Shown in pieces: positions 507 to 19,693 of a stretch of DNA of 48,440 nucleotides. Position numbers and translations under genes: made by a program. Positions within the stretch are counted from its first letter, which is position 1. Every line of letters begins with the position of its first letter. The notes under the pieces were generated by a model, which did no database searches, was not told the origin of the DNA, and saw nothing but the letters and a program-made list of their open reading frames with translations. Source of the DNA: Candidatus Parcubacteria bacterium (GTDB lineage: Bacteria; Patescibacteriota; Patescibacteriia; Magasanikbacterales; UBA922); assembly GCA_002869205.1 (NCBI GenBank), contig PKTJ01000023.1, positions 1 to 48,440 of the forward strand. Direction: 5' to 3'.

Positions 507-1944
507 ATATACTTTATTTGCTCTGTTTGTCTGGCTTTTTGTACACACAATTGTATTGCTTGCGGTGGGATTGAGTAGTAATACAAAAAAAACTGATGTA
601 ATCTTGATATTAGGAAATAAGGTTGAAGTGGATGGAACTCCTTCAAAAAGACTGAAAAGTAGACTAGATACTGGTGCAGAGTTGTACCATAAAAAACAAG
701 CTCCACTTATCATTGTGAGCGGAGGACTTGGAAAAGAAGTATATGATGAGGCCAAGACCATGAAAGAATATTTAATATCAAAAGATATACCTAGTAGTAA
801 TATTATTGTTGATGATGAAGGAAATAATACATACATGACAGCGATGAACTACAAATCCATAGCAAGACAACGGAAATTAAAGAGTGTTACTGTGGTGTCA
901 CAATATTATCATCTTTTGAGAACAAAAATGACACTCAAAAAATTTGGAATTGATCATGTGTATACGTCAAAAGCACAGATGTTTCCTGAGCTCAGAGATT
1001 TTTATTCTATACCAAGAGAAATCGTTGGATATTATAGTTACCTCTTAAAAGATTATACGGCAGAGACGGCCTCTACTTTTTTTTCAGAGCCATATGTAGA
1101 GGTGAGGAAGGGTGATTTGTGGTATGGAGATGTGTATTTTGTAAATAAAGAGGGAAAAGGAGTCCTCGTGTCGACGTCTAAATCTGTAGAAAATGGTCTT
1201 GTTACCTCAGAATTTGATAGTATTTTTTATATAGATGCACTATTGTCTCCAGATGAAAGAAAAATAGCAATAGTCGGAGCATGTTGGGAAGATGATTGTG
1301 TGTCGGTGTATGATATTGATACAAAGGAATTACATGAAACATTTGTGGCTAGTTCACAAGTAGAATGGCTTGATGATGGCCGTCTAAAAATAGTAGGAGG
1401 ATGTAGTAATCCAGTAGATTTTTGTGGAGTGTATGAATCTCAAAATAGTTCGAAGCCGTGGGAACTAGAAAAGACCATCGGGCAAAAGACTAAAGATAAT
1501 ACATATTCTATAAAAAATTTGAATTTTGGTATCGAGGAAACCATCCCAATTTTATATAGAGGTTCATTTGGTTATGAAGAAAAAGAAAAATTTGTTGAAT
1601 TGGGAAGGCCTATGCCCGAAGATCTTTTTTGGGGATCAGTAGAATATTTATATACACCTAGAGGACAAGAGTTTAAGCTGCTTGCTCAGGCAAATATGTC
1701 TGACAACCTTGGGGACGGTGAATTTTATAATGGTTGGCTTACTAATGGAATGAAAACAGAGTATGTAAATACAGGTAAACTTATAGAGGCTACAAGATAT
1801 GGAGAAATAATCTATGGAAATGGATTTGTATCTGATTCAGATTATTCTGATTATCAAATTTATATTATTAGTAGAGAAAAGGGTGACGTTGGTGTATCTC
1901 CTAGGAACGAGATGGTTCTGACTGTATTACTTAAAGTTCAATAA
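490..1944 (+). CDS. DUF218 (YdcF/SanA/ElyC-like) domain protein with a long uncharacterised C-terminal extension
   Basis: An N-terminal TM helix is followed by a DUF218-type region (VILILGNKV..DGTPSKRLKSRLDTGAELY..APLIIVSGG..VTVVSQYYHLLR). Residues ~200-484 have no motif I recognise. Confidence 0.6.
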   Translation: MKKIFKYTLFALFVWLFVHTIVLLAVGLSSNTKKTDVILILGNKVEVDGTPSKRLKSRLDTGAELYHKKQAPLIIVSGGLGKEVYDEAKTMKEYLISKDIPSSNIIVDDEGNNTYMTAMNYKSIARQRKLKSVTVVSQYYHLLRTKMTLKKFGIDHVYTSKAQMFPELRDFYSIPREIVGYYSYLLKDYTAETASTFFSEPYVEVRKGDLWYGDVYFVNKEGKGVLVSTSKSVENGLVTSEFDSIFYIDALLSPDERKIAIVGACWEDDCVSVYDIDTKELHETFVASSQVEWLDDGRLKIVGGCSNPVDFCGVYESQNSSKPWELEKTIGQKTKDNTYSIKNLNFGIEETIPILYRGSFGYEEKEKFVELGRPMPEDLFWGSVEYLYTPRGQEFKLLAQANMSDNLGDGEFYNGWLTNGMKTEYVNTGKLIEATRYGEIIYGNGFVSDSDYSDYQIYIISREKGDVGVSPRNEMVLTVLLKVQ

Positions 1945-3007: not shown

Positions 3008-3955
3008 ATGCCTAAAAAAACACGCATACTAGGTGGCTCAAAATACAAGATGAATGATGCGCATTTACATGTCGTTGATTTTATGCAAAATTCTCGTGAT
3101 TTTACTGACATCTTGCGTGAGATGAACAAGGCAAATATCCAAAAAGCAGCTATCTTTGGTCTGCCGGTGAAGAAAACATACTCTGAATTTGAATATAACA
3201 AACCTGCATACTATCTGGACAATAATGCGAAATGTTATTATTTTTCTGAGACCGATGATATTATTGTAAATAAATATAGAAAACTTACACAACAACAAAA
3301 AAAGCGTCTCGTCCCATTGCTTTGTGGGTTTAATCCGACAGACAGAAGCTCGGTAGATATTATTCGTGCAAAGTTAAAAAGATATAGAGGGGTTTTCAAA
3401 GGTGTGGGTGAAGTGATGCTTCGGCATGATGATCTGACCAATATGACACTTGGGCAAACACCACGTGGTAATACCGAAGCAATGATGGACGTGGCACAGC
3501 TCTGTCGTGAAGAAAACATTCCACTTCTCATTCATCACAATCTCACTTCTGTCTGGCTCGATACACATCCTGAGTATTTGCGTGAACTTCATGACTTGCT
3601 CCAGCGAAATCCAAACACGACTGTTGTGTGGGCTCACTGTGGTGCGTCTCGTCGAGTAAACATACCAAATTACGATACCATTATTCGCAACATGCTTACG
3701 TATTATCATAATCTATATGTAGATTATAGTTGGATTTTTTATGATGAAATTTTGTGTAGTAATGGTGAGCCACGTGAGGCATGGATAAAGTTGACTGAAG
3801 ATTTTTCTGATCGTATTATGCTTGGTAGTGATTTGTTTCTAAACTATGAATTACTAGGTCATGTCATGAAACGATATGACAACTTCTTGGATAGATTGAC
3901 ACCTAAGACGCGAGAGAAGGTTTGTACAGGGAATTTCAATAAGATATTTGGTTAG
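3008..3955 (+). CDS. amidohydrolase-family (TIM-barrel metal-dependent) hydrolase
   Basis: Ordered motifs AHLHVVDF (H-x-H), LLIHHN, VVWAHCG and GSDLF are typical of amidohydrolase-2 type enzymes. The start could instead be the internal Met at 3050. Confidence 0.6.
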   Translation: MPKKTRILGGSKYKMNDAHLHVVDFMQNSRDFTDILREMNKANIQKAAIFGLPVKKTYSEFEYNKPAYYLDNNAKCYYFSETDDIIVNKYRKLTQQQKKRLVPLLCGFNPTDRSSVDIIRAKLKRYRGVFKGVGEVMLRHDDLTNMTLGQTPRGNTEAMMDVAQLCREENIPLLIHHNLTSVWLDTHPEYLRELHDLLQRNPNTTVVWAHCGASRRVNIPNYDTIIRNMLTYYHNLYVDYSWIFYDEILCSNGEPREAWIKLTEDFSDRIMLGSDLFLNYELLGHVMKRYDNFLDRLTPKTREKVCTGNFNKIFG

Positions 3956-3981: not shown

Positions 3982-4007
3982 AAAAAACCCCAAACCCGGG
4001 GTTTTTA
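3982..4007. terminator. bidirectional intrinsic terminator
   Basis: AAAAACCCC-loop-GGGGTTTTT hairpin with an A-run on one side and a T-run on the other. It lies after the stop of the + strand hydrolase gene and at the 3' end of the minus-strand structured RNA. Confidence 0.7.
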
Positions 4008-4020
4008 AAATATTTGAGAA

Positions 4021-4218
4021 CGGATTTGGGGGAGGCGGGAGGTCAGCTGGAGTAGGTCGCTGATATATTATGCGCGCCGGAACTTAACCCTCCGATATGA
4101 CCAGAACGGTCAATGTAAGAGGCAATCCCTTGTGGTTAGGGAAAGGTTTCTAGGTGGGACGCGGCGTCCCGGGCGGCGCCGATGGACAACTGAACTCGAC
4201 GTCTCACCCCAAATCCGT
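4021..4218 (-). ncRNA. unclassified GC-rich structured RNA (~200 nt)
   Basis: No credible ORF. A 14-bp closing helix pairs 4021-4034 (CGGATTTGGGGGAG) with 4203-4217 (CTCaCCCCAAATCCG, one bulged A). Internal hairpins lie at 4099-4111, 4127-4141 and 4156-4170. A consensus promoter sits immediately upstream on the minus strand and a terminator at 3982-4007. I could not find the RNase P, tmRNA, SRP or 6S signatures I can recall. Confidence 0.55.
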
Positions 4219-4224
4219 GGCTAC

Positions 4225-4253
4225 ATAATAAATCAAAAATAGGGGAGTGTCAA
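4225..4253 (-). promoter_or_regulatory. sigma70-type promoter of the structured RNA
   Basis: On the minus strand, TTGACA (4253-4248), an exact 17-nt spacer, then TATTAT (4230-4225). The predicted TSS at ~4218 coincides with the 5' arm of the closing helix. Confidence 0.65.
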
Positions 4254-4354
4254 TTGTAAGACAAACAAAAAAACACCTTGCAATGGGAGTTTTCCTTTCC
4301 TCCCCGACCACGTACGTGCGACCGGGGAAGAGTGCGTCTTGGGTTGGAGAAAAG

Positions 4355-4390
4355 GGCGATTTTGAGATAAGAGGTCTCCTTCGGGACCTC
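4355..4390 (-). terminator. GC-rich stem-loop after the island-1 ORF
   Basis: GAGGTC-8 nt loop-GACCTC hairpin abutting the stop codon, followed on the minus strand by a partly U-rich stretch. Confidence 0.45.
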
Positions 4391-4860
4391 TAGGCGGCTT
4401 CGGCGCCGGGTCTGACGACCCAGTGGTTGATAGAGCCGTTGTCGATCATGATGACCGCCTCGCCGGGCTTGAGCTCGTCGAGGTTGGGAATGTTGTCGGC
4501 CTCTCTGAGGCTCACGAAGAACTCCGGGACGCTCTGCGCTTTCGTGAGCGGACATGTGGCGATCACCACCTCAGCGTGGATGGCCTCGACACTCATCGAA
4601 AGGCACGTCCGTGCGTAAGGTACCACAGTCTCGGTCAGGTTGGCGAAGTGGGTGTACTTAACAGTTCCTCTGGTCGCTTCGAGTGCTGTGCACAGTACCG
4701 CGGCGCAGGCCTCGGATTGCACGTCATCCTCGGACGCGAACACGACGATCCTGTCGTGCTGGTCGAAGATAGGCTTGAGTTCCCCTGCCAAGGTCGGCAT
4801 GAGATCAATATCCTCGGCCACGACGACGAAGATTCTACTGACGTTTTCCCAGTGAGGCAT
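4390..4860 (-). CDS. orphan high-GC protein (156 aa), function unknown
   Basis: The start was moved to the Met at 4860, which has a GGAGGAA SD ~5 nt upstream. Third codon positions are almost all G/C, unlike the overlapping ORFs in other frames. No catalytic motif recognised. There is only a vague resemblance to a SixA-like alpha/beta fold, without the RHG motif. Confidence 0.6.
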   Translation of the reverse strand: MPHWENVSRIFVVVAEDIDLMPTLAGELKPIFDQHDRIVVFASEDDVQSEACAAVLCTALEATRGTVKYTHFANLTETVVPYARTCLSMSVEAIHAEVVIATCPLTKAQSVPEFFVSLREADNIPNLDELKPGEAVIMIDNGSINHWVVRPGAEAA

Positions 4861-4909
4861 CCTATTCCTCCGTCCAGAAATCGCTGTGAGCGATGTTGGT
4901 TTCCTGTTT

Positions 4910-4938
4910 TTTATAGCATATTTACCGATTTTGTTCAA
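4910..4938 (-). promoter_or_regulatory. sigma70-type promoter of the island-1 ORF
   Basis: On the minus strand, TTGAAC (4938-4933), a 17-nt spacer, then TATAAA (4915-4910), ~50 nt upstream of the start codon. Confidence 0.5.
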
Positions 4939-5108
4939 GGCAGGGGATTTCATAAACAAAAAACCGTCATAGTTAATCTGGGAGGGGTAGTAGGGGGTTT
5001 CCCCCTACCTACAACCCTTCCGCCTCGTCGGCGGACACTCGACAAGATTGCTTTTTTCTAGTACAATTATCCGTGCTACGTAAAGCGTGACCGCAACGCA
5101 GTTTCACT

Positions 5109-6308
5109 ATGAAAAGACTCATAATTCTCATAATCCTTGGACTCGCCATACTTGGTGTAGTCTTTTTTGTGCGTTCGACCGCAGGGACAACTCTAGAGTT
5201 GTCCGAAGTGGACGTCACAGAACCGCCCAAACCACAATATGACATAACAGAATATATTGTAGGTGAAGATGATATTTTTGCGACCATTATGGAAGATTGG
5301 GGAATTGGGTATAGTGACATGCTTACCATGGTAGATGCTGTGTCGAGTACGTACGACCTTACACGCATTCGCGTTGGTCAACCGATCAGACTTGCAAAAA
5401 ATGAGTATGGACACAATGTGTATCTCGAATATGAACGAAACAAAGATTTATGTGTACGCGTGTATTTTGAAAATGGTGGATACAGAGCAGAAGAATATGA
5501 TGTAGAATATGATGTAGAAATTGTGAAGCAACGTGCGACCGTGAGTAGCTCGATGTATATTGATGGGCTCGAAGCCGATATTCCCGAAGAAATTATTATG
5601 GAATTTGCAGATACGTTTGCATGGACGATTGATTTTTCTGTACAAGTAAAAAAGGGAGATAGTTTTGAAGTCATGTATGAAAAGCGTTCTCGCAAGGGAG
5701 AAGATGCAGGGATGGGAAATATTCTTGCAGCTAAGTTTATGAACGTTGGTACAGAGTTTAGTGCATATTTGTTTGAAAATGAAGAGGGGGATCTGGCGTA
5801 TTATAGTGGAGAAGGAGAAAGCATGGTGCGACAGTTCTTGCGTGCGCCTTTGGATTTCCGTCGTATTTCATCTGGCTATACCTATGCACGATTTGATCCG
5901 ATCAATGGTAGAAAACAAAAGCATCTGGCAATTGATTATGCTGCAGCCATGGGCACACCAATTATGGCAGTGGGGGATGGGACTATTCGTTTTGCTGGCT
6001 GGAACAATCAAGGGTTTGGTAATTTTGTAAGTATTCGTCATAATGATGTCTATATTACTGAGTACGCACACATGTCTGGATTTGCAAAAGGAATTCGAAA
6101 TGGTGTATTTGTCAAACAAGGGCAAGTGATTGGCTATGTAGGATCTACTGGTTGGTCTACTGGTCCACATCTTCACTATCAGATCAAGAAGTATGGGTCA
6201 CTAGTAAATCCTCTTGCACTTGAACTTCCACCAGGAGATCCAGTACCAGAAGGAAAACAAGAAGCGTTTGAAAATATTAAACAAAAATATAACGACATGA
6301 TGAAATAA
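5109..6308 (+). CDS. M23 family metallopeptidase (peptidoglycan endopeptidase)
   Basis: N-terminal signal/TM segment. C-terminal M23 signatures HLAIDYAA, GDGTI, GFGNFVSIRH and GSTGWSTGPHLHYQI. Confidence 0.85.
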   Translation: MKRLIILIILGLAILGVVFFVRSTAGTTLELSEVDVTEPPKPQYDITEYIVGEDDIFATIMEDWGIGYSDMLTMVDAVSSTYDLTRIRVGQPIRLAKNEYGHNVYLEYERNKDLCVRVYFENGGYRAEEYDVEYDVEIVKQRATVSSSMYIDGLEADIPEEIIMEFADTFAWTIDFSVQVKKGDSFEVMYEKRSRKGEDAGMGNILAAKFMNVGTEFSAYLFENEEGDLAYYSGEGESMVRQFLRAPLDFRRISSGYTYARFDPINGRKQKHLAIDYAAAMGTPIMAVGDGTIRFAGWNNQGFGNFVSIRHNDVYITEYAHMSGFAKGIRNGVFVKQGQVIGYVGSTGWSTGPHLHYQIKKYGSLVNPLALELPPGDPVPEGKQEAFENIKQKYNDMMK

Positions 6309-7570: not shown

Positions 7571-7701
7571 AAAATGTGATTAAAAAAGAACGGTGGAAGC
7601 CGTTTTTTTATTTTTTTAAAACATGGTATGATGGATTAAGAAATAGTCGGCAAAAAGATTTTTTGTTGGCTCTGGCCACAACGTGCTCCATAGGAGGATG
7701 C

Positions 7702-7974
7702 ATGGCGTCAAACAGTGCGCGAAGGCGTAGGAACAGAGAGTCCAAGACGCGGGCTGCTGAACAAGAAGCCAAGAGGCAGAAGAGCTTCAAGCCTGGGCAA
7801 CAGGAGGAAGGCGGCATCTCTGCTGGTCCTGCTGTTCAAGCTCAGACAGCTTCGAAGAAGTCCGGTCGTCCGGTCATCCCCGCGGGTCGCAACATGACTC
7901 GTACACCGTTCGGGACTGACATCAGCCGGAGGAAGAACCTCTGGGAGAAGCCTCCGGGCGCCGCGAAGAAGTAG
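7702..7974 (+). CDS. orphan high-GC, highly basic low-complexity protein (90 aa)
   Basis: ATG at 7702 with an AGGAGG SD 4-5 nt upstream. The N-terminus is Arg/Lys-rich (ARRRRNRESKTR). Three successive stem-loops follow the stop. The antisense ORF 7708..8016 looks like a GC shadow. Confidence 0.45.
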   Translation: MASNSARRRRNRESKTRAAEQEAKRQKSFKPGQQEEGGISAGPAVQAQTASKKSGRPVIPAGRNMTRTPFGTDISRRKNLWEKPPGAAKK

Positions 7975-8144
7975 ACCCACTCTCTTCGTAGAGAGTTTGT
8001 CTTTTACATCGTACACCCCGCTAGGCCATGCAGCGGGGAGGAAGTCACATCAAACCTCCCATTTGGGAGGATTTTTTTATCCACAATTGACCAGATCTCT
8101 TAAAAGCGTACAATTATAGTAGTAATTTAATTAACTATAAGATT

Positions 8145-10869: not shown

Positions 10870-12126
10870 ATGGTATTTCCTCAGAAACCAGAAGAAAAAA
10901 AATTGGTGTACCTGGATCACGCAGCAACAACTCCTACAGATGAGCGTGTAGTCGAAGCAATGCAACCATATTTCACTGAAAAGTTTGCAAATCCTTCGGG
11001 TCTTTATGCAATTGGTAGGGATGTGAATGGTGCTCTCAATGATGCACGTCGTAGTATTGCTCAATCACTCCACGCACTCCCAGACACCATCATCTTTACT
11101 GGTGGTGGTACTGAGTCAGACAATATGGCTATCTTTGGTGTAGCGCGAAAATACATAGACAAAGGCAAACATATTATTACCACAACGATTGAACATCATG
11201 CCGTTTTGCATTCATGTGAACAGCTTGAAAAAGAAGGGTTTGACGTGACGTATTTAGAACCAGATTCACAAGGATTTATTTCTCCAAAAAAAGTTACAGC
11301 AGCTCTACGAGAAGATACAATACTCGTGTCTATTATGTATGCGAATAACGAAGTGGGCACTATTGAGCCTATTGATGATATTGGAAGAGAAATTCTTAAA
11401 TGGAGAAAGAAGCACGCTACCAAATTTCCTTTTTTTCACACTGATGCGTGTCAAGCTCCTGGCGCATGTGAACTTGATGTTGAAAAGTTACATACTGATT
11501 TGTTGACACTCAACGGCAGTAAGATTTATGGACCAAAGGGTGTGGGGATTTTGTATAAACGTCGCAATGTTCAATTACAACCAATTATTTTTGGTGGCGG
11601 ACAAGAGATGCGTTTGCGTAGTGGTACCGAAAATGTTCCAGGTATTGTAGGGCTTGCAAAAGCATTGCAGCTTGCGCAAGAAAATAGCCAAGATGAAAAT
11701 ATGCGTCTTATTGATTTGCGAAATTATTTTTGGGATAGACTGGAAAAAGAAATACCAAAAGTCAGACTCAATGGTGCTGACTTGGGGTTGACACGATTGC
11801 CAAACAATTTGAATATATCAATTTTGGATATCGAAGGAGAAGCATTACTCTTGTATCTAGATGAATATGGAATTGTTTGTTCAACAGGGTCTGCATGTAC
11901 CTCAGACTCGCTCGATCCATCACACGTCTTGCTTGCGATGGGAATGCCGTATGAATATGCACACGGAAGTTTACGTTTTACCTTAGGTAAAACTACCACA
12001 AAAGAAGATGTAGATTATGTCATGACTTATTTGCCAGGAATTGTAGAAAAGCTTCGTCAAATTTCTCCTGTAAATCTGACACAAAATCCAAAAGAAAATA
12101 CTCATCCAAAGTATCATCAACGATAG
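10870..12126 (+). CDS. iscS: cysteine desulfurase (NifS/IscS class V aminotransferase)
   Basis: Full-length resemblance, including YLDHAATTP, GGTESDN, the PLP-lysine region LNGSKIYGPKG and the active-site loop SSGSACTS variant STGSACTSD. Confidence 0.9.
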   Translation: MVFPQKPEEKKLVYLDHAATTPTDERVVEAMQPYFTEKFANPSGLYAIGRDVNGALNDARRSIAQSLHALPDTIIFTGGGTESDNMAIFGVARKYIDKGKHIITTTIEHHAVLHSCEQLEKEGFDVTYLEPDSQGFISPKKVTAALREDTILVSIMYANNEVGTIEPIDDIGREILKWRKKHATKFPFFHTDACQAPGACELDVEKLHTDLLTLNGSKIYGPKGVGILYKRRNVQLQPIIFGGGQEMRLRSGTENVPGIVGLAKALQLAQENSQDENMRLIDLRNYFWDRLEKEIPKVRLNGADLGLTRLPNNLNISILDIEGEALLLYLDEYGIVCSTGSACTSDSLDPSHVLLAMGMPYEYAHGSLRFTLGKTTTKEDVDYVMTYLPGIVEKLRQISPVNLTQNPKENTHPKYHQR

Positions 12127-13997: not shown

Positions 13998-14213
13998 ATG
14001 CCCGTAAACTACACCAGTTTCGGGAAAACCAGGTTCTGTCCTGGTTGTCAGGAGAACAAAACGGTCGAGACAGGTCTTGATACGAGAAGTGGCGAATACG
14101 TCCACAGATGTATCAAGGGTTCCTGTGAGTGTGAGTTTGTGGTCCGAGATGGACAGTCGGTCCGTTGGACCGAGCTCGCGCTTGTAGCGGACGAAACTCC
14201 CGACGCCACCTAG
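13998..14213 (+). CDS. orphan high-GC zinc-ribbon-like protein (71 aa)
   Basis: ATG at 13998 with an AGAGGAG SD. Cys/His pattern CPGC ... HRC..GSCEC. G/C-ending codons. A 10-bp GC hairpin (CCCTCGACGT/ACGTCGAGGG) lies downstream. Confidence 0.5.
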   Translation: MPVNYTSFGKTRFCPGCQENKTVETGLDTRSGEYVHRCIKGSCECEFVVRDGQSVRWTELALVADETPDAT

Positions 14214-14290
14214 GCGTCGTGACGTCACCGCGTCGACCAGATCGCAGCCCCTCGACGTCCGGAAACGTCGAGGGCATTCTCACAAATTAA

Positions 14291-18628: not shown

Positions 18629-18661
18629 ACAAGTGAAGGCCCCGTCCTTTCCCGCCGGGGC

Positions 18662-18865
18662 TCATGGATCTTTTCGCGAACCAACGTCGATCTTGGTGAT
18701 AGAGCAGAGGAGTGCGTTCCAATTGGCGCCTCGGAGGCGCGGCCCGTCAATTCTAATATTGCTCGGATGAGCAGACACGGAAATACCGGGCGCTGTGATA
18801 TGGACACATTCTCCTGTCGATCGCGCTTGATCGAGTTTTCTCCTGATCTCGGCAAGTGAGACCAT
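18662..18865 (-). CDS. orphan high-GC small protein (67 aa)
   Basis: The start was moved to the Met at 18865 because a consensus promoter lies inside the longer ORF. A GAGGGG SD-like site sits 6 nt upstream and a GC-rich hairpin follows the stop. No family recognised. The alternative frame 18625..18855 cannot be fully excluded. Confidence 0.35.
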   Translation of the reverse strand: MVSLAEIRRKLDQARSTGECVHITAPGISVSAHPSNIRIDGPRLRGANWNALLCSITKIDVGSRKDP

Positions 18866-18895
18866 TCCTAACCCCTCTCCGTATAGGAAGATCCT

Positions 18896-18924
18896 ATTAT
18901 ATAGATTATTATATATATCGTCAA
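18896..18924 (-). promoter_or_regulatory. consensus sigma70-type promoter for the island-4 ORF
   Basis: On the minus strand, TTGACG (18924-18919), an exact 17-nt spacer, then TATAAT (18901-18896). It is divergent from the trmH-like gene. Confidence 0.6.
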
Positions 18925-18928
18925 ACAT

Positions 18929-19693
18929 ATGTTACAAAAGAAAATAGCAAAACATCTTAAACAGCTTGGGCAAAAAAAGTTTCGCAAAGAATTCGAAGAG
19001 TTTGTCGTAGAAGGAATAAAAGGTGTGGGAGAAGCACTCAAGTCTGATGCAGAGGTGGTATTACTTGTGGTAGAAGGAAATAGGAGAGACGAAGATGAGA
19101 TTGCAAAACTTATTGTATTGGCGCAGCAAGATAATATTCCGGTAGAGTTTTGTGGACGAAAAGATGTGGATGAAATTAAGACAACGGATACGTTTCCTGG
19201 TGTGTTGGCTGTTGTAGGTCAAGAAGAAAATGATTTGGAAGATATTGTGGATGCTCCGATCATTTGTTTACATGAAGTAAAAGATCCGGGAAATCTGGGA
19301 ACAATTATAAGAACTGCAGATTGGTTTGGTATAAAAAATATTTTACTCAGTGAAGAGTGTGTAGATGTGTACAATCCAAAAGTGTTCAGAAGTACGATGG
19401 GTTCTCTATTTCACACAACTATTTTTCGTTCCGGAAACATTTCAAAGACGCTTGAAAGACTAAAAGAAGAATTTGACTATGAAGTGAATGCTCTTGATAT
19501 GGATGGTAATGATGTTAGTAAATTAAAATCAAAAAATAATGCAGTATATCTATTTGGAAGTGAATCTCACGGTGTTTCAGACACCCTTGAAGAGCTCATA
19601 GATAATCGCTATACTATATCTGGTAAAGGAGACGCAGAATCACTTAATTTGGCTATTTCTGCAGGGATTGTTCTTTATAAACTGTCATCCTGA
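18929..19693 (+). CDS. TrmH/SpoU-family RNA 2'-O-methyltransferase
   Basis: SpoU motifs DPGNLGTIIRTADWFG, LFGSESHGVS and SLNLAISAGIVLY. The last codons and the stop lie inside the left repeat of the GIY-YIG element. Confidence 0.8.
   Translation: MLQKKIAKHLKQLGQKKFRKEFEEFVVEGIKGVGEALKSDAEVVLLVVEGNRRDEDEIAKLIVLAQQDNIPVEFCGRKDVDEIKTTDTFPGVLAVVGQEENDLEDIVDAPIICLHEVKDPGNLGTIIRTADWFGIKNILLSEECVDVYNPKVFRSTMGSLFHTTIFRSGNISKTLERLKEEFDYEVNALDMDGNDVSKLKSKNNAVYLFGSESHGVSDTLEELIDNRYTISGKGDAESLNLAISAGIVLYKLSS

Follow-up and report, generated by a model that had tools for sequence, protein, structure and literature searches.

Several described kinds of RNA resemble in their architecture the element reported here. 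6S RNA (RF00013 and related families) is the product of an independent gene, measures ~180-200 nt and is closed by a long interrupted stem formed from its 5' and 3' ends, with a central bubble and a terminal stem inside. The msr-msd RNAs of retrons, encoded in accessory or variable regions, are multi-hairpin molecules of ~200 nt closed by terminal inverted repeats (a1/a2). Long-range helices formed by transcript ends also enclose structured cores in the RNase III stalks that flank rRNAs and excised RNAs. A further group comprises the "moron"-type sRNA genes of prophages and islands, self-contained units of foreign base composition that are transcribed from a sigma-70-type promoter into a short, structured, non-coding RNA ending at an intrinsic terminator, and that are located at tRNA-associated integration hot spots and absent from close relatives. 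We know of no characterised small RNA in bacteria of the candidate phyla radiation (CPR); our searches of the literature linking the radiation to noncoding RNA and GC-rich sequence, or to 6S RNA, found none, and a wider search on Patescibacteria and structured RNA found nothing relevant.

We studied an intergenic element on the minus strand of a 48,440-bp stretch of DNA (the whole stretch that was analysed, hereafter the window). The relatives of the M23 peptidase gene in the window (5109-6308) showed 84%, 71% and 56-65% identity and were found in MAGs labelled as Candidatus Parcubacteria, Candidatus Magasanikbacteria or Patescibacteria group; the window itself is a contig from a CPR bacterium resembling Candidatus Magasanikbacteria. 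Our preferred but tentative reading, taken from the sequence, is that the element is an independently transcribed, non-coding, structured sRNA gene, an unclassified singleton on a lineage-specific, GC-rich variable island. Its transcript would run on the minus strand from ~4218 to ~3982, with a body of ~200 nt, or ~235 nt with the terminator. The body has a GC content of 57%, as against 37.7% for the window. The features of the unit, in the order of the predicted transcript, are:

4225 to 4253, minus strand: putative sigma-70-type promoter TTGACA-17-TATTAT, with 11 of the 12 consensus positions matched
4187 to 4218, minus strand: 5' arm of the closing helix, beginning at the predicted transcription start
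4156 to 4170, minus strand: inner hairpin 1, GGGACG-CCG-CGUCCC, in both the MFE and the centroid structures
4126 to 4142, minus strand: inner hairpin 2, UCCCU-AACCACA-AGGGA (5-bp stem, 7-nt loop), in both MFE and centroid
4090 to 4122, minus strand: inner hairpin 3, a two-tier stem CCUCU...GACC-GUUCU-GGUC...GGAGG, in both MFE and centroid
4050 to 4076, minus strand: A/U-rich segment GCAUAAUAUAUCAGCGACCUACUCC between hairpin 3 and the closing helix, predicted single-stranded in the centroid structure
4020 to 4049, minus strand: 3' arm of the closing helix, which has 27 pairs in total and a perfect 12-bp core at 4020-4031 of this arm
3982 to 4007, bidirectional: terminator-like hairpin flanked by A and T runs, which folds and was not flagged by a consensus scan

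The original prediction had placed a TTGACA-17-TATTAT promoter at 4253-4225 with a start near 4218 and a closing helix beginning at that start, and both parts agree with our results: the predicted transcription start is A4218, 7 nt past the -10 hexamer on the minus strand, and it is the first base of the helix. Four sites of 11/12 quality were present in the 48-kb window, whereas block shuffles gave an expectation of ~2.4, and the count of near-consensus promoters is by itself not significant. All four were located directly upstream of transcription units, namely the Rrf2 gene, clpB, a GC-rich ORF at 18865 and the RNA element.

The 206-nt body folded at -79 kcal/mol, compared with -58.2 +/- 4.2 kcal/mol for dinucleotide shuffles (z = -4.92; none of 200 shuffles was as good), and the body together with the terminator at -91 kcal/mol (z = -4.88). 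The plus strand of the same region also folded significantly (z = -3.39), so folding alone cannot fix the strand. Assignment of the strand from G-U pairs was considered and set aside, the imperfections of the inverted repeat being tolerated on both strands with neither favoured. A closing helix had been proposed as 14 bp with one bulged A; the helix itself was recovered, but it proved longer, at 27 pairs, with a perfect 12-bp core (4207-4218 paired with 4020-4031) followed by a remainder interrupted by one bulge and three small internal loops. In the RNA the base that bulges out is U4206, the A being that of the plus strand. A perfect stem of at least 12 bp occurred anywhere in one of 1000 dinucleotide shuffles and between the two ends in none of 1000. 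The inner hairpins that had been described at 4156-4170, 4127-4141 and 4099-4111 were all found again in MFE and centroid structures, with small shifts in the limits of the last two (4126-4142 and 4098-4112); the 4098-4112 hairpin is nested inside the longer stem 4090-4122. In the centroid structure the three hairpins stand separately in a multiloop, whereas the MFE structure has a branched end, both being predictions from a single sequence.

The region appeared to be non-coding, as had been claimed. No ORF longer than 36 aa was found in it, and its GC content by codon phase was flat (0.60/0.56/0.56), in contrast with 0.60/0.40/0.78 in a neighbouring ORF of equal GC (ORF156, see below).

A transcript end at a hairpin plus U-run (3982-4007) had also been predicted. 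The hairpin, AAAAACCCC-GGGUUU-GGGGUUUUUU, does fold, at -12 kcal/mol, 13 nt beyond the closing helix, and the transcript would end there. The minus strand reads AAAAACCCCGGGUUUGGGGUUUUUU at 4007-3982, the stem is short (only 4 G-C pairs) and symmetric, and a pattern scanner gave no flag. The same hairpin could also serve the convergent amidohydrolase gene that ends at 3955. Note that the 3' arm of the closing helix, CCCCAAAUCCG (4021-4031), could also pair with the 3' half of the terminator hairpin, CGGGUUUGGGG (3988-3998), over 11 nt that include a single mismatch or wobble, which may be an alternative pairing or a coincidence of low complexity. An attenuator built on this complementarity was rejected because there is no downstream gene to regulate. 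Taken together, the promoter, the closing helix, the hairpins and the terminator-like hairpin bear out the proposed anatomy of a stand-alone structured RNA transcription unit.

Searches with Rfam 15 at the gathering score gave zero matches in the whole 48-kb window, and at E <= 10 gave only chance matches (e.g., to miRNA and snoRNA models) on a 1.7-kb query and on a 256-nt query, the latter with lax filters. ARAGORN found neither tRNA nor tmRNA in the window. Within the reach of covariance models, these results exclude 6S, SRP, RNase P, tmRNA, riboswitches, ribozymes and group I/II introns. The original statement that the element is not recognisable as RNase P, tmRNA, SRP or 6S RNA thus stands, and the Rfam covariance-model search suggested with it returned no confident match to a housekeeping RNA. 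Other classes were considered and rejected on different grounds. A riboswitch or attenuator is contradicted by the next gene (3008-3955), which is on the opposite strand and convergent, and no Rfam cis-regulatory match was obtained; for a type III toxin-antitoxin RNA, direct repeats were lacking, the RNA is downstream of the ORF and no PADLOC family was found; and for a tRNA gene with a group I intron, Rfam, ARAGORN and blastn/nhmmer comparisons with the tRNA-Asn genes of relatives were all blank. A degenerate tRNA or intron was also sought in the window, where both the T-loop and the tRNA-Asn 5' motif were absent.

Searches for homologues of the RNA covered the loci fetched from relatives and others, phage and plasmid collections and viral contigs, while the scans of genome and metagenome collections used protein anchors. 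Comparison of the RNA with 58 loci by blastn and nhmmer revealed no homologue. A covariance model (R1), for which the centroid structure of this one sequence served as the basis, found no match over ~660 kb of loci from relatives and others. The phage and plasmid collections were equally negative by BLAST, and apart from two matches by chance within unrelated coding sequence, four exact or degenerate patterns found nothing in viral contigs. The single frame that is open across the whole RNA (plus strand) was also used as a protein query, to catch spurious ORF calls over homologues, and gave no match. The closest relative sampled is only 84% identical in the M23 protein, so the species has been sampled once.

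The synteny to the right of the island (M23, ZIP, a 117-aa gene, glutaredoxin, exonuclease and so on) was conserved in the relatives. In every readable relative, the slot upstream of and divergent from M23 contained a tRNA-Asn(GUU) gene split by a group I intron (loci L002/L057/L058, L003/L063, L005, L062 and L067); in L060 only the promoter end of the tRNA gene was left on the contig. The intron is located in the anticodon loop and is conserved across the Magasanikbacteria relatives. ARAGORN missed all of these split genes, and Rfam detected the intron in most of them, except in L067, where it is evident by eye. Their positions are:

L002, 800 to 1320, minus strand: intron-split tRNA-Asn(GUU)
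L003, 9440 to 9830, minus strand: intron-split tRNA-Asn(GUU)
L005, 9239 to 9655: intron-split tRNA-Asn(GUU)
L062, 9190 to 9820, minus strand: intron-split tRNA-Asn(GUU)
L067, 4290 to 4810, minus strand: intron-split tRNA-Asn(GUU)

The intron-containing gene is flanked by partial copies of the tRNA 5' or 3' ends fused to a small hairpin, CCCGA-NNNN-TCGGG, and in L062 and in L067 one such copy is found inside the tRNA gene itself. These copies may be traces of repeated integration or of intron-associated duplication:

L002, 1270 to 1320, minus strand: partial tRNA copy
L062, 9770 to 9820 and 9650 to 9700, minus strand: partial tRNA copies
L067, 4180 to 4235 and 4740 to 4770, minus strand: partial tRNA copies

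Signs of mobile elements were present at the slot, with a serine-recombinase fragment in L058 and a phage-integrase island in L059, and L057 and L058 carry different DNA directly past the 3' end of the tRNA. The slot is a variable, mobile-element-prone integration hot spot. Homology between the window and L002 ends just past a conserved hairpin at ~4985; in place of the tRNA the window carries a promoter followed by the GC-rich ORF156 (4860-4390), a GC hairpin with a T-run, the RNA unit and the convergent amidohydrolase gene. None of the relatives sampled had the RNA element or ORF156 at this slot. The missing tRNA may lie past the contig end, the island having either replaced the tRNA or been inserted beside it. 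Two assemblies of this organism, the window (position 1) and ERZ794998 NODE_1001 (L001, position 14991), have left ends within ~40 bp of each other, and this coincidence suggests a repeat at that point, which might be the missing tRNA/intron locus or else a mobile element. Elsewhere in the group, the Magasanikbacteria MAG L004 presented two Rfam RNAs unrelated to the sRNA candidate, Acido-Lenti-1 (11251-11296, minus strand, 55.8 bits) and DUF3800-II (523-599, minus strand, 49.3 bits).

The neighbour of the RNA in the island is a GC-rich orphan gene with its own promoter:

4390 to 4860, minus strand: ORF156, GC-rich orphan ORF of 156 aa, with GC1/2/3 of 0.60/0.40/0.78 and no convincing homologue
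4258 to 4340, minus strand: 3' module of the ORF156 cassette, with a 14-bp GC hairpin (4300-4331), then CTCCC... and a T-run (4264-4270); z = -3.5

The coding signature of ORF156 is that of a GC-rich source, with a GC3 of 0.78 compared with ~0.31 for host genes. Among 5.8 billion clustered proteins, a word-indexed search retrieved nothing but ORF156 itself, and a full HMMER scan of 1.84 billion representatives added a single weak local match (E = 9.8e-06, query residues 114-144, in a 2,242-aa protein) that we treated as not informative. No family was identified in Pfam, PADLOC, PHROGs or NCBIfam. The single-sequence AlphaFold model had a mean pLDDT of 63 and the form of a generic alpha/beta sandwich, for which Foldseek found nothing in the PDB at E < 1e-3, only generic alpha/beta folds with TM < 0.4.

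ORF156 is not the only unit of its kind. At least three more GC-rich units were found in the window, each consisting of a small orphan ORF followed by a CCCC...GGGG hairpin, and others were found in the relatives, either at the same intergenic slots or elsewhere between genes:

4258 to 4960, minus strand: window unit of ORF156
7640 to 8077, plus strand: window unit (7702-8077) with a 90-aa basic ORF
13998 to 14290, plus strand: window unit with a 71-aa Cys-rich ORF
18630 to 18930, minus strand: window unit (18865-18630) with a 67-aa ORF
L002, 4180 to 4790 and 4880 to 5260: GC-rich units
L061, 4737 to 5533: GC-rich unit
L062, 13194 to 13423 and 19473 to 19960: GC-rich units

These units have a GC content of 52-60%, compared with 32-41% in the genome stretches fetched (about 37% in most). 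Their small orphan ORFs had no match in Pfam, PHROGs or NCBIfam. The unit at 18865 has an 11/12 promoter directly upstream, detected by the scan, and the other two have extended -10-like sequences recognised by eye only; some units also carry a strong AT-rich promoter or a second terminator hairpin. Thus the architecture of AT-rich promoter, GC-rich payload and terminator recurs among other GC-rich islands of the window. The presence of the units differs among close relatives, L060 and L003 having none upstream of glutaredoxin. To our knowledge such GC-rich cassettes have not been described.

Cassettes with unrelated ORFs have a 3' module in common, composed of T-CCCCG-loop-CGGGG, a short spacer, a CTCCC-loop-GGGAG hairpin and a T-run. 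An alignment of five sequences only showed double changes in 3 of 10 pairs, and in L061 two tandem cassettes share a 3' segment of 106 nt at 93% identity. The copies are:

8000 to 8078: 3' module in the window
4258 to 4340, minus strand: 3' module in the window
L002, 5215 to 5262: 3' module
L061, 5040 to 5135 and 5460 to 5552: 3' modules

The 90-aa basic ORF (…SGRPVIPAGRNMTRTPFGTDISRRKNLW…; window 7702-7974) is homologous to L002 4935-5180. The 66 nt that encode the conserved C-terminal part are ~95% identical in DNA, against 80% for the whole cassette, and the L002 homologue has N-terminal indels and an in-frame TAG. Three explanations may be offered for the high identity over the 66 nt: conservation of a peptide motif, nucleotide-level selection and a recent exchange.

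The 3' module of ORF156 aligned with those of the glutaredoxin-upstream cassettes in the window, L002 and L061. Its T-run ends at 4264, upstream of the -35 hexamer of the RNA, and the module probably ends the upstream unit before the RNA promoter. An RNA like the candidate was absent behind all three glutaredoxin-upstream cassettes. Since matching 3' modules occur elsewhere with no RNA behind them, adjacency is what is left to connect the RNA with the protein. The suggestion that the RNA and the 156-aa protein form a pair therefore found no support, ORF156 having its own promoter and 3' module and the cassettes that share this module being without the RNA.

If the element is an sRNA gene, the RNA would be transcribed from its own promoter and would end at the bidirectional hairpin. 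The end-to-end helix may guard it from exonucleases, or may act as an RNase III processing stalk that releases a core of ~135 nt. For the three hairpins and the A/U-rich single strand, presentation to a protein partner is proposed rather than antisense pairing; apart from A/T-rich chance matches, the window contained no stretch of 13 nt or more complementary to the RNA, so antisense action is not indicated. The RNA would then be an accessory "moron"-type self-contained unit, as in prophages, rather than a housekeeping RNA.

Other explanations of the element were weighed against this one. A rather unlikely one, still more probable than the others that follow, is that the element is an inert relic, i.e., a foreign GC-rich fragment with an imperfect 30-bp inverted repeat (a MITE, an IS end remnant or a recombination/attachment site) that a promoter-like sequence adjoins by chance, the terminator belonging to the convergent gene. 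The slot would suit such an origin, being an integration hot spot (the recombinase fragment of L058, the integrase island of L059 and the divergence of L057 and L058) with partial tRNA duplications flanking the tRNA in relatives; moreover, both strands of the element fold, it is a singleton in the searches made, and promoter-like sites as good as this one are not rare by chance in an AT-rich window, as the shuffles showed. Terminal inverted repeats, with imperfect arms of ~30 bp, are indeed present, but there is no target-site duplication beside them (the flanks, gtagcc and ttctca, share nothing) and no second copy of an arm was found in the 48-kb window, with up to 3 mismatches allowed, or in ~660 kb of relatives' loci. 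Against a relic there are also the three further stable hairpins inside the terminal repeat, with an overall z of -4.9, and the exact coincidence of the helix start with the predicted +1 of a promoter that ranks among the window's four best. It is improbable that the RNA is the 3' part of the ORF156 unit, transcribed together with the ORF156 mRNA or processed out of it, and acting in cis or on ORF156 as a stabilising 3' structure, a processed 3'-UTR sRNA, an RNA antitoxin or a partner of the 156-aa protein, the last being the pair originally suggested. The RNA is on the same strand as ORF156 and begins 170 nt beyond its stop codon, the two have a high GC content in common, relatives have neither, and degeneration of the second hairpin in the ORF156 3' module makes read-through plausible. 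However, the same module ends cassettes elsewhere that have no RNA downstream, and the RNA carries its own near-consensus promoter; tandem repeats as in type III antitoxins and extended complementarity between the RNA and ORF156 were both absent, and ORF156 belongs to no recognisable RNA-binding or nuclease family (pLDDT 63, Foldseek blank).

That the element is a very divergent housekeeping RNA missed by the Rfam models in a CPR lineage, with 6S RNA as the best candidate, is very unlikely and the least probable of the readings considered. Its length of ~200 nt, its long interrupted closing stem and its organisation as a stand-alone unit with a strong promoter would all fit 6S RNA, and GC-rich islands in AT-rich genomes are typically structured RNAs. 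The 256-nt query searched with lax filters nevertheless matched no 6S, SRP, RNase P or tmRNA model even at E <= 10, and the predicted interior is a multi-branch of three hairpins. A housekeeping RNA is expected to be conserved across the genus, whereas this element belongs to a lineage-specific island; in all relatives a tRNA gene occupies the slot, and ~660 kb of related loci yielded nothing similar. The probability that remains outside the sRNA gene and these three rivals covers other, unlisted possibilities. It is also conceivable, as a long shot, that a new class of structured RNAs, of which this would be the first member, is carried like the neighbouring orphan minigenes by GC-rich promoter-plus-payload cassettes in the intergenic slots of AT-rich Magasanikbacteria. 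The element would be the RNA-only cargo of such cassettes and might work with ORF156; the cassettes would then make up a previously undescribed system of accessory genes, mobile or exchanged rapidly, among ultra-small symbiotic bacteria.

If transcribed, the candidate would be among the very few sRNAs proposed for CPR/Patescibacteria, whose RNA biology is essentially uncharted, and variable intergenic slots would take up RNA genes besides orphan minigenes. Being one sequence for which no relatives were found, it is no basis for a family or for covariation analysis and gives no indication of function. A more general and more promising lead comes from its context, in which genomes of ~37% GC contain scattered GC-rich cassettes that are self-contained, have strong promoters of the host type and share a hairpin module at the 3' end. 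If real, the element is a new sRNA that has no family and, in kind, another orphan island-borne sRNA candidate.

Compared with the systems described at the outset, the candidate shares with retron RNAs the terminal inverted repeats closing a multi-hairpin RNA of ~200 nt in an accessory or variable region, but a reverse transcriptase gene or domain is absent among the annotated neighbours, the downstream gene being the convergent amidohydrolase. It resembles 6S RNA in size, in the long interrupted closing stem and in being an independent gene, and differs from it in giving no covariance-model match at any threshold tried, in its three-hairpin interior (a single-sequence prediction) in place of a central bubble and terminal stem, and in its lack of conservation at the locus in relatives. 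As in the RNase III stalks, a long-range helix of ~27 bp between the transcript ends encloses a structured core, whereas this core matches no rRNA or other known RNA and its processing is only presumed. The candidate is longer and more extensively paired than typical base-pairing sRNAs. It departs from the sRNA genes of prophages and islands in having no integrase or mobile-element gene linked to it in the window and no target complementarity, and agrees with them in its putative sigma-70-type promoter, its predicted short structured non-coding transcript with a probable intrinsic terminator, its foreign base composition, its place in a tRNA-associated integration hot spot and its absence from close relatives.
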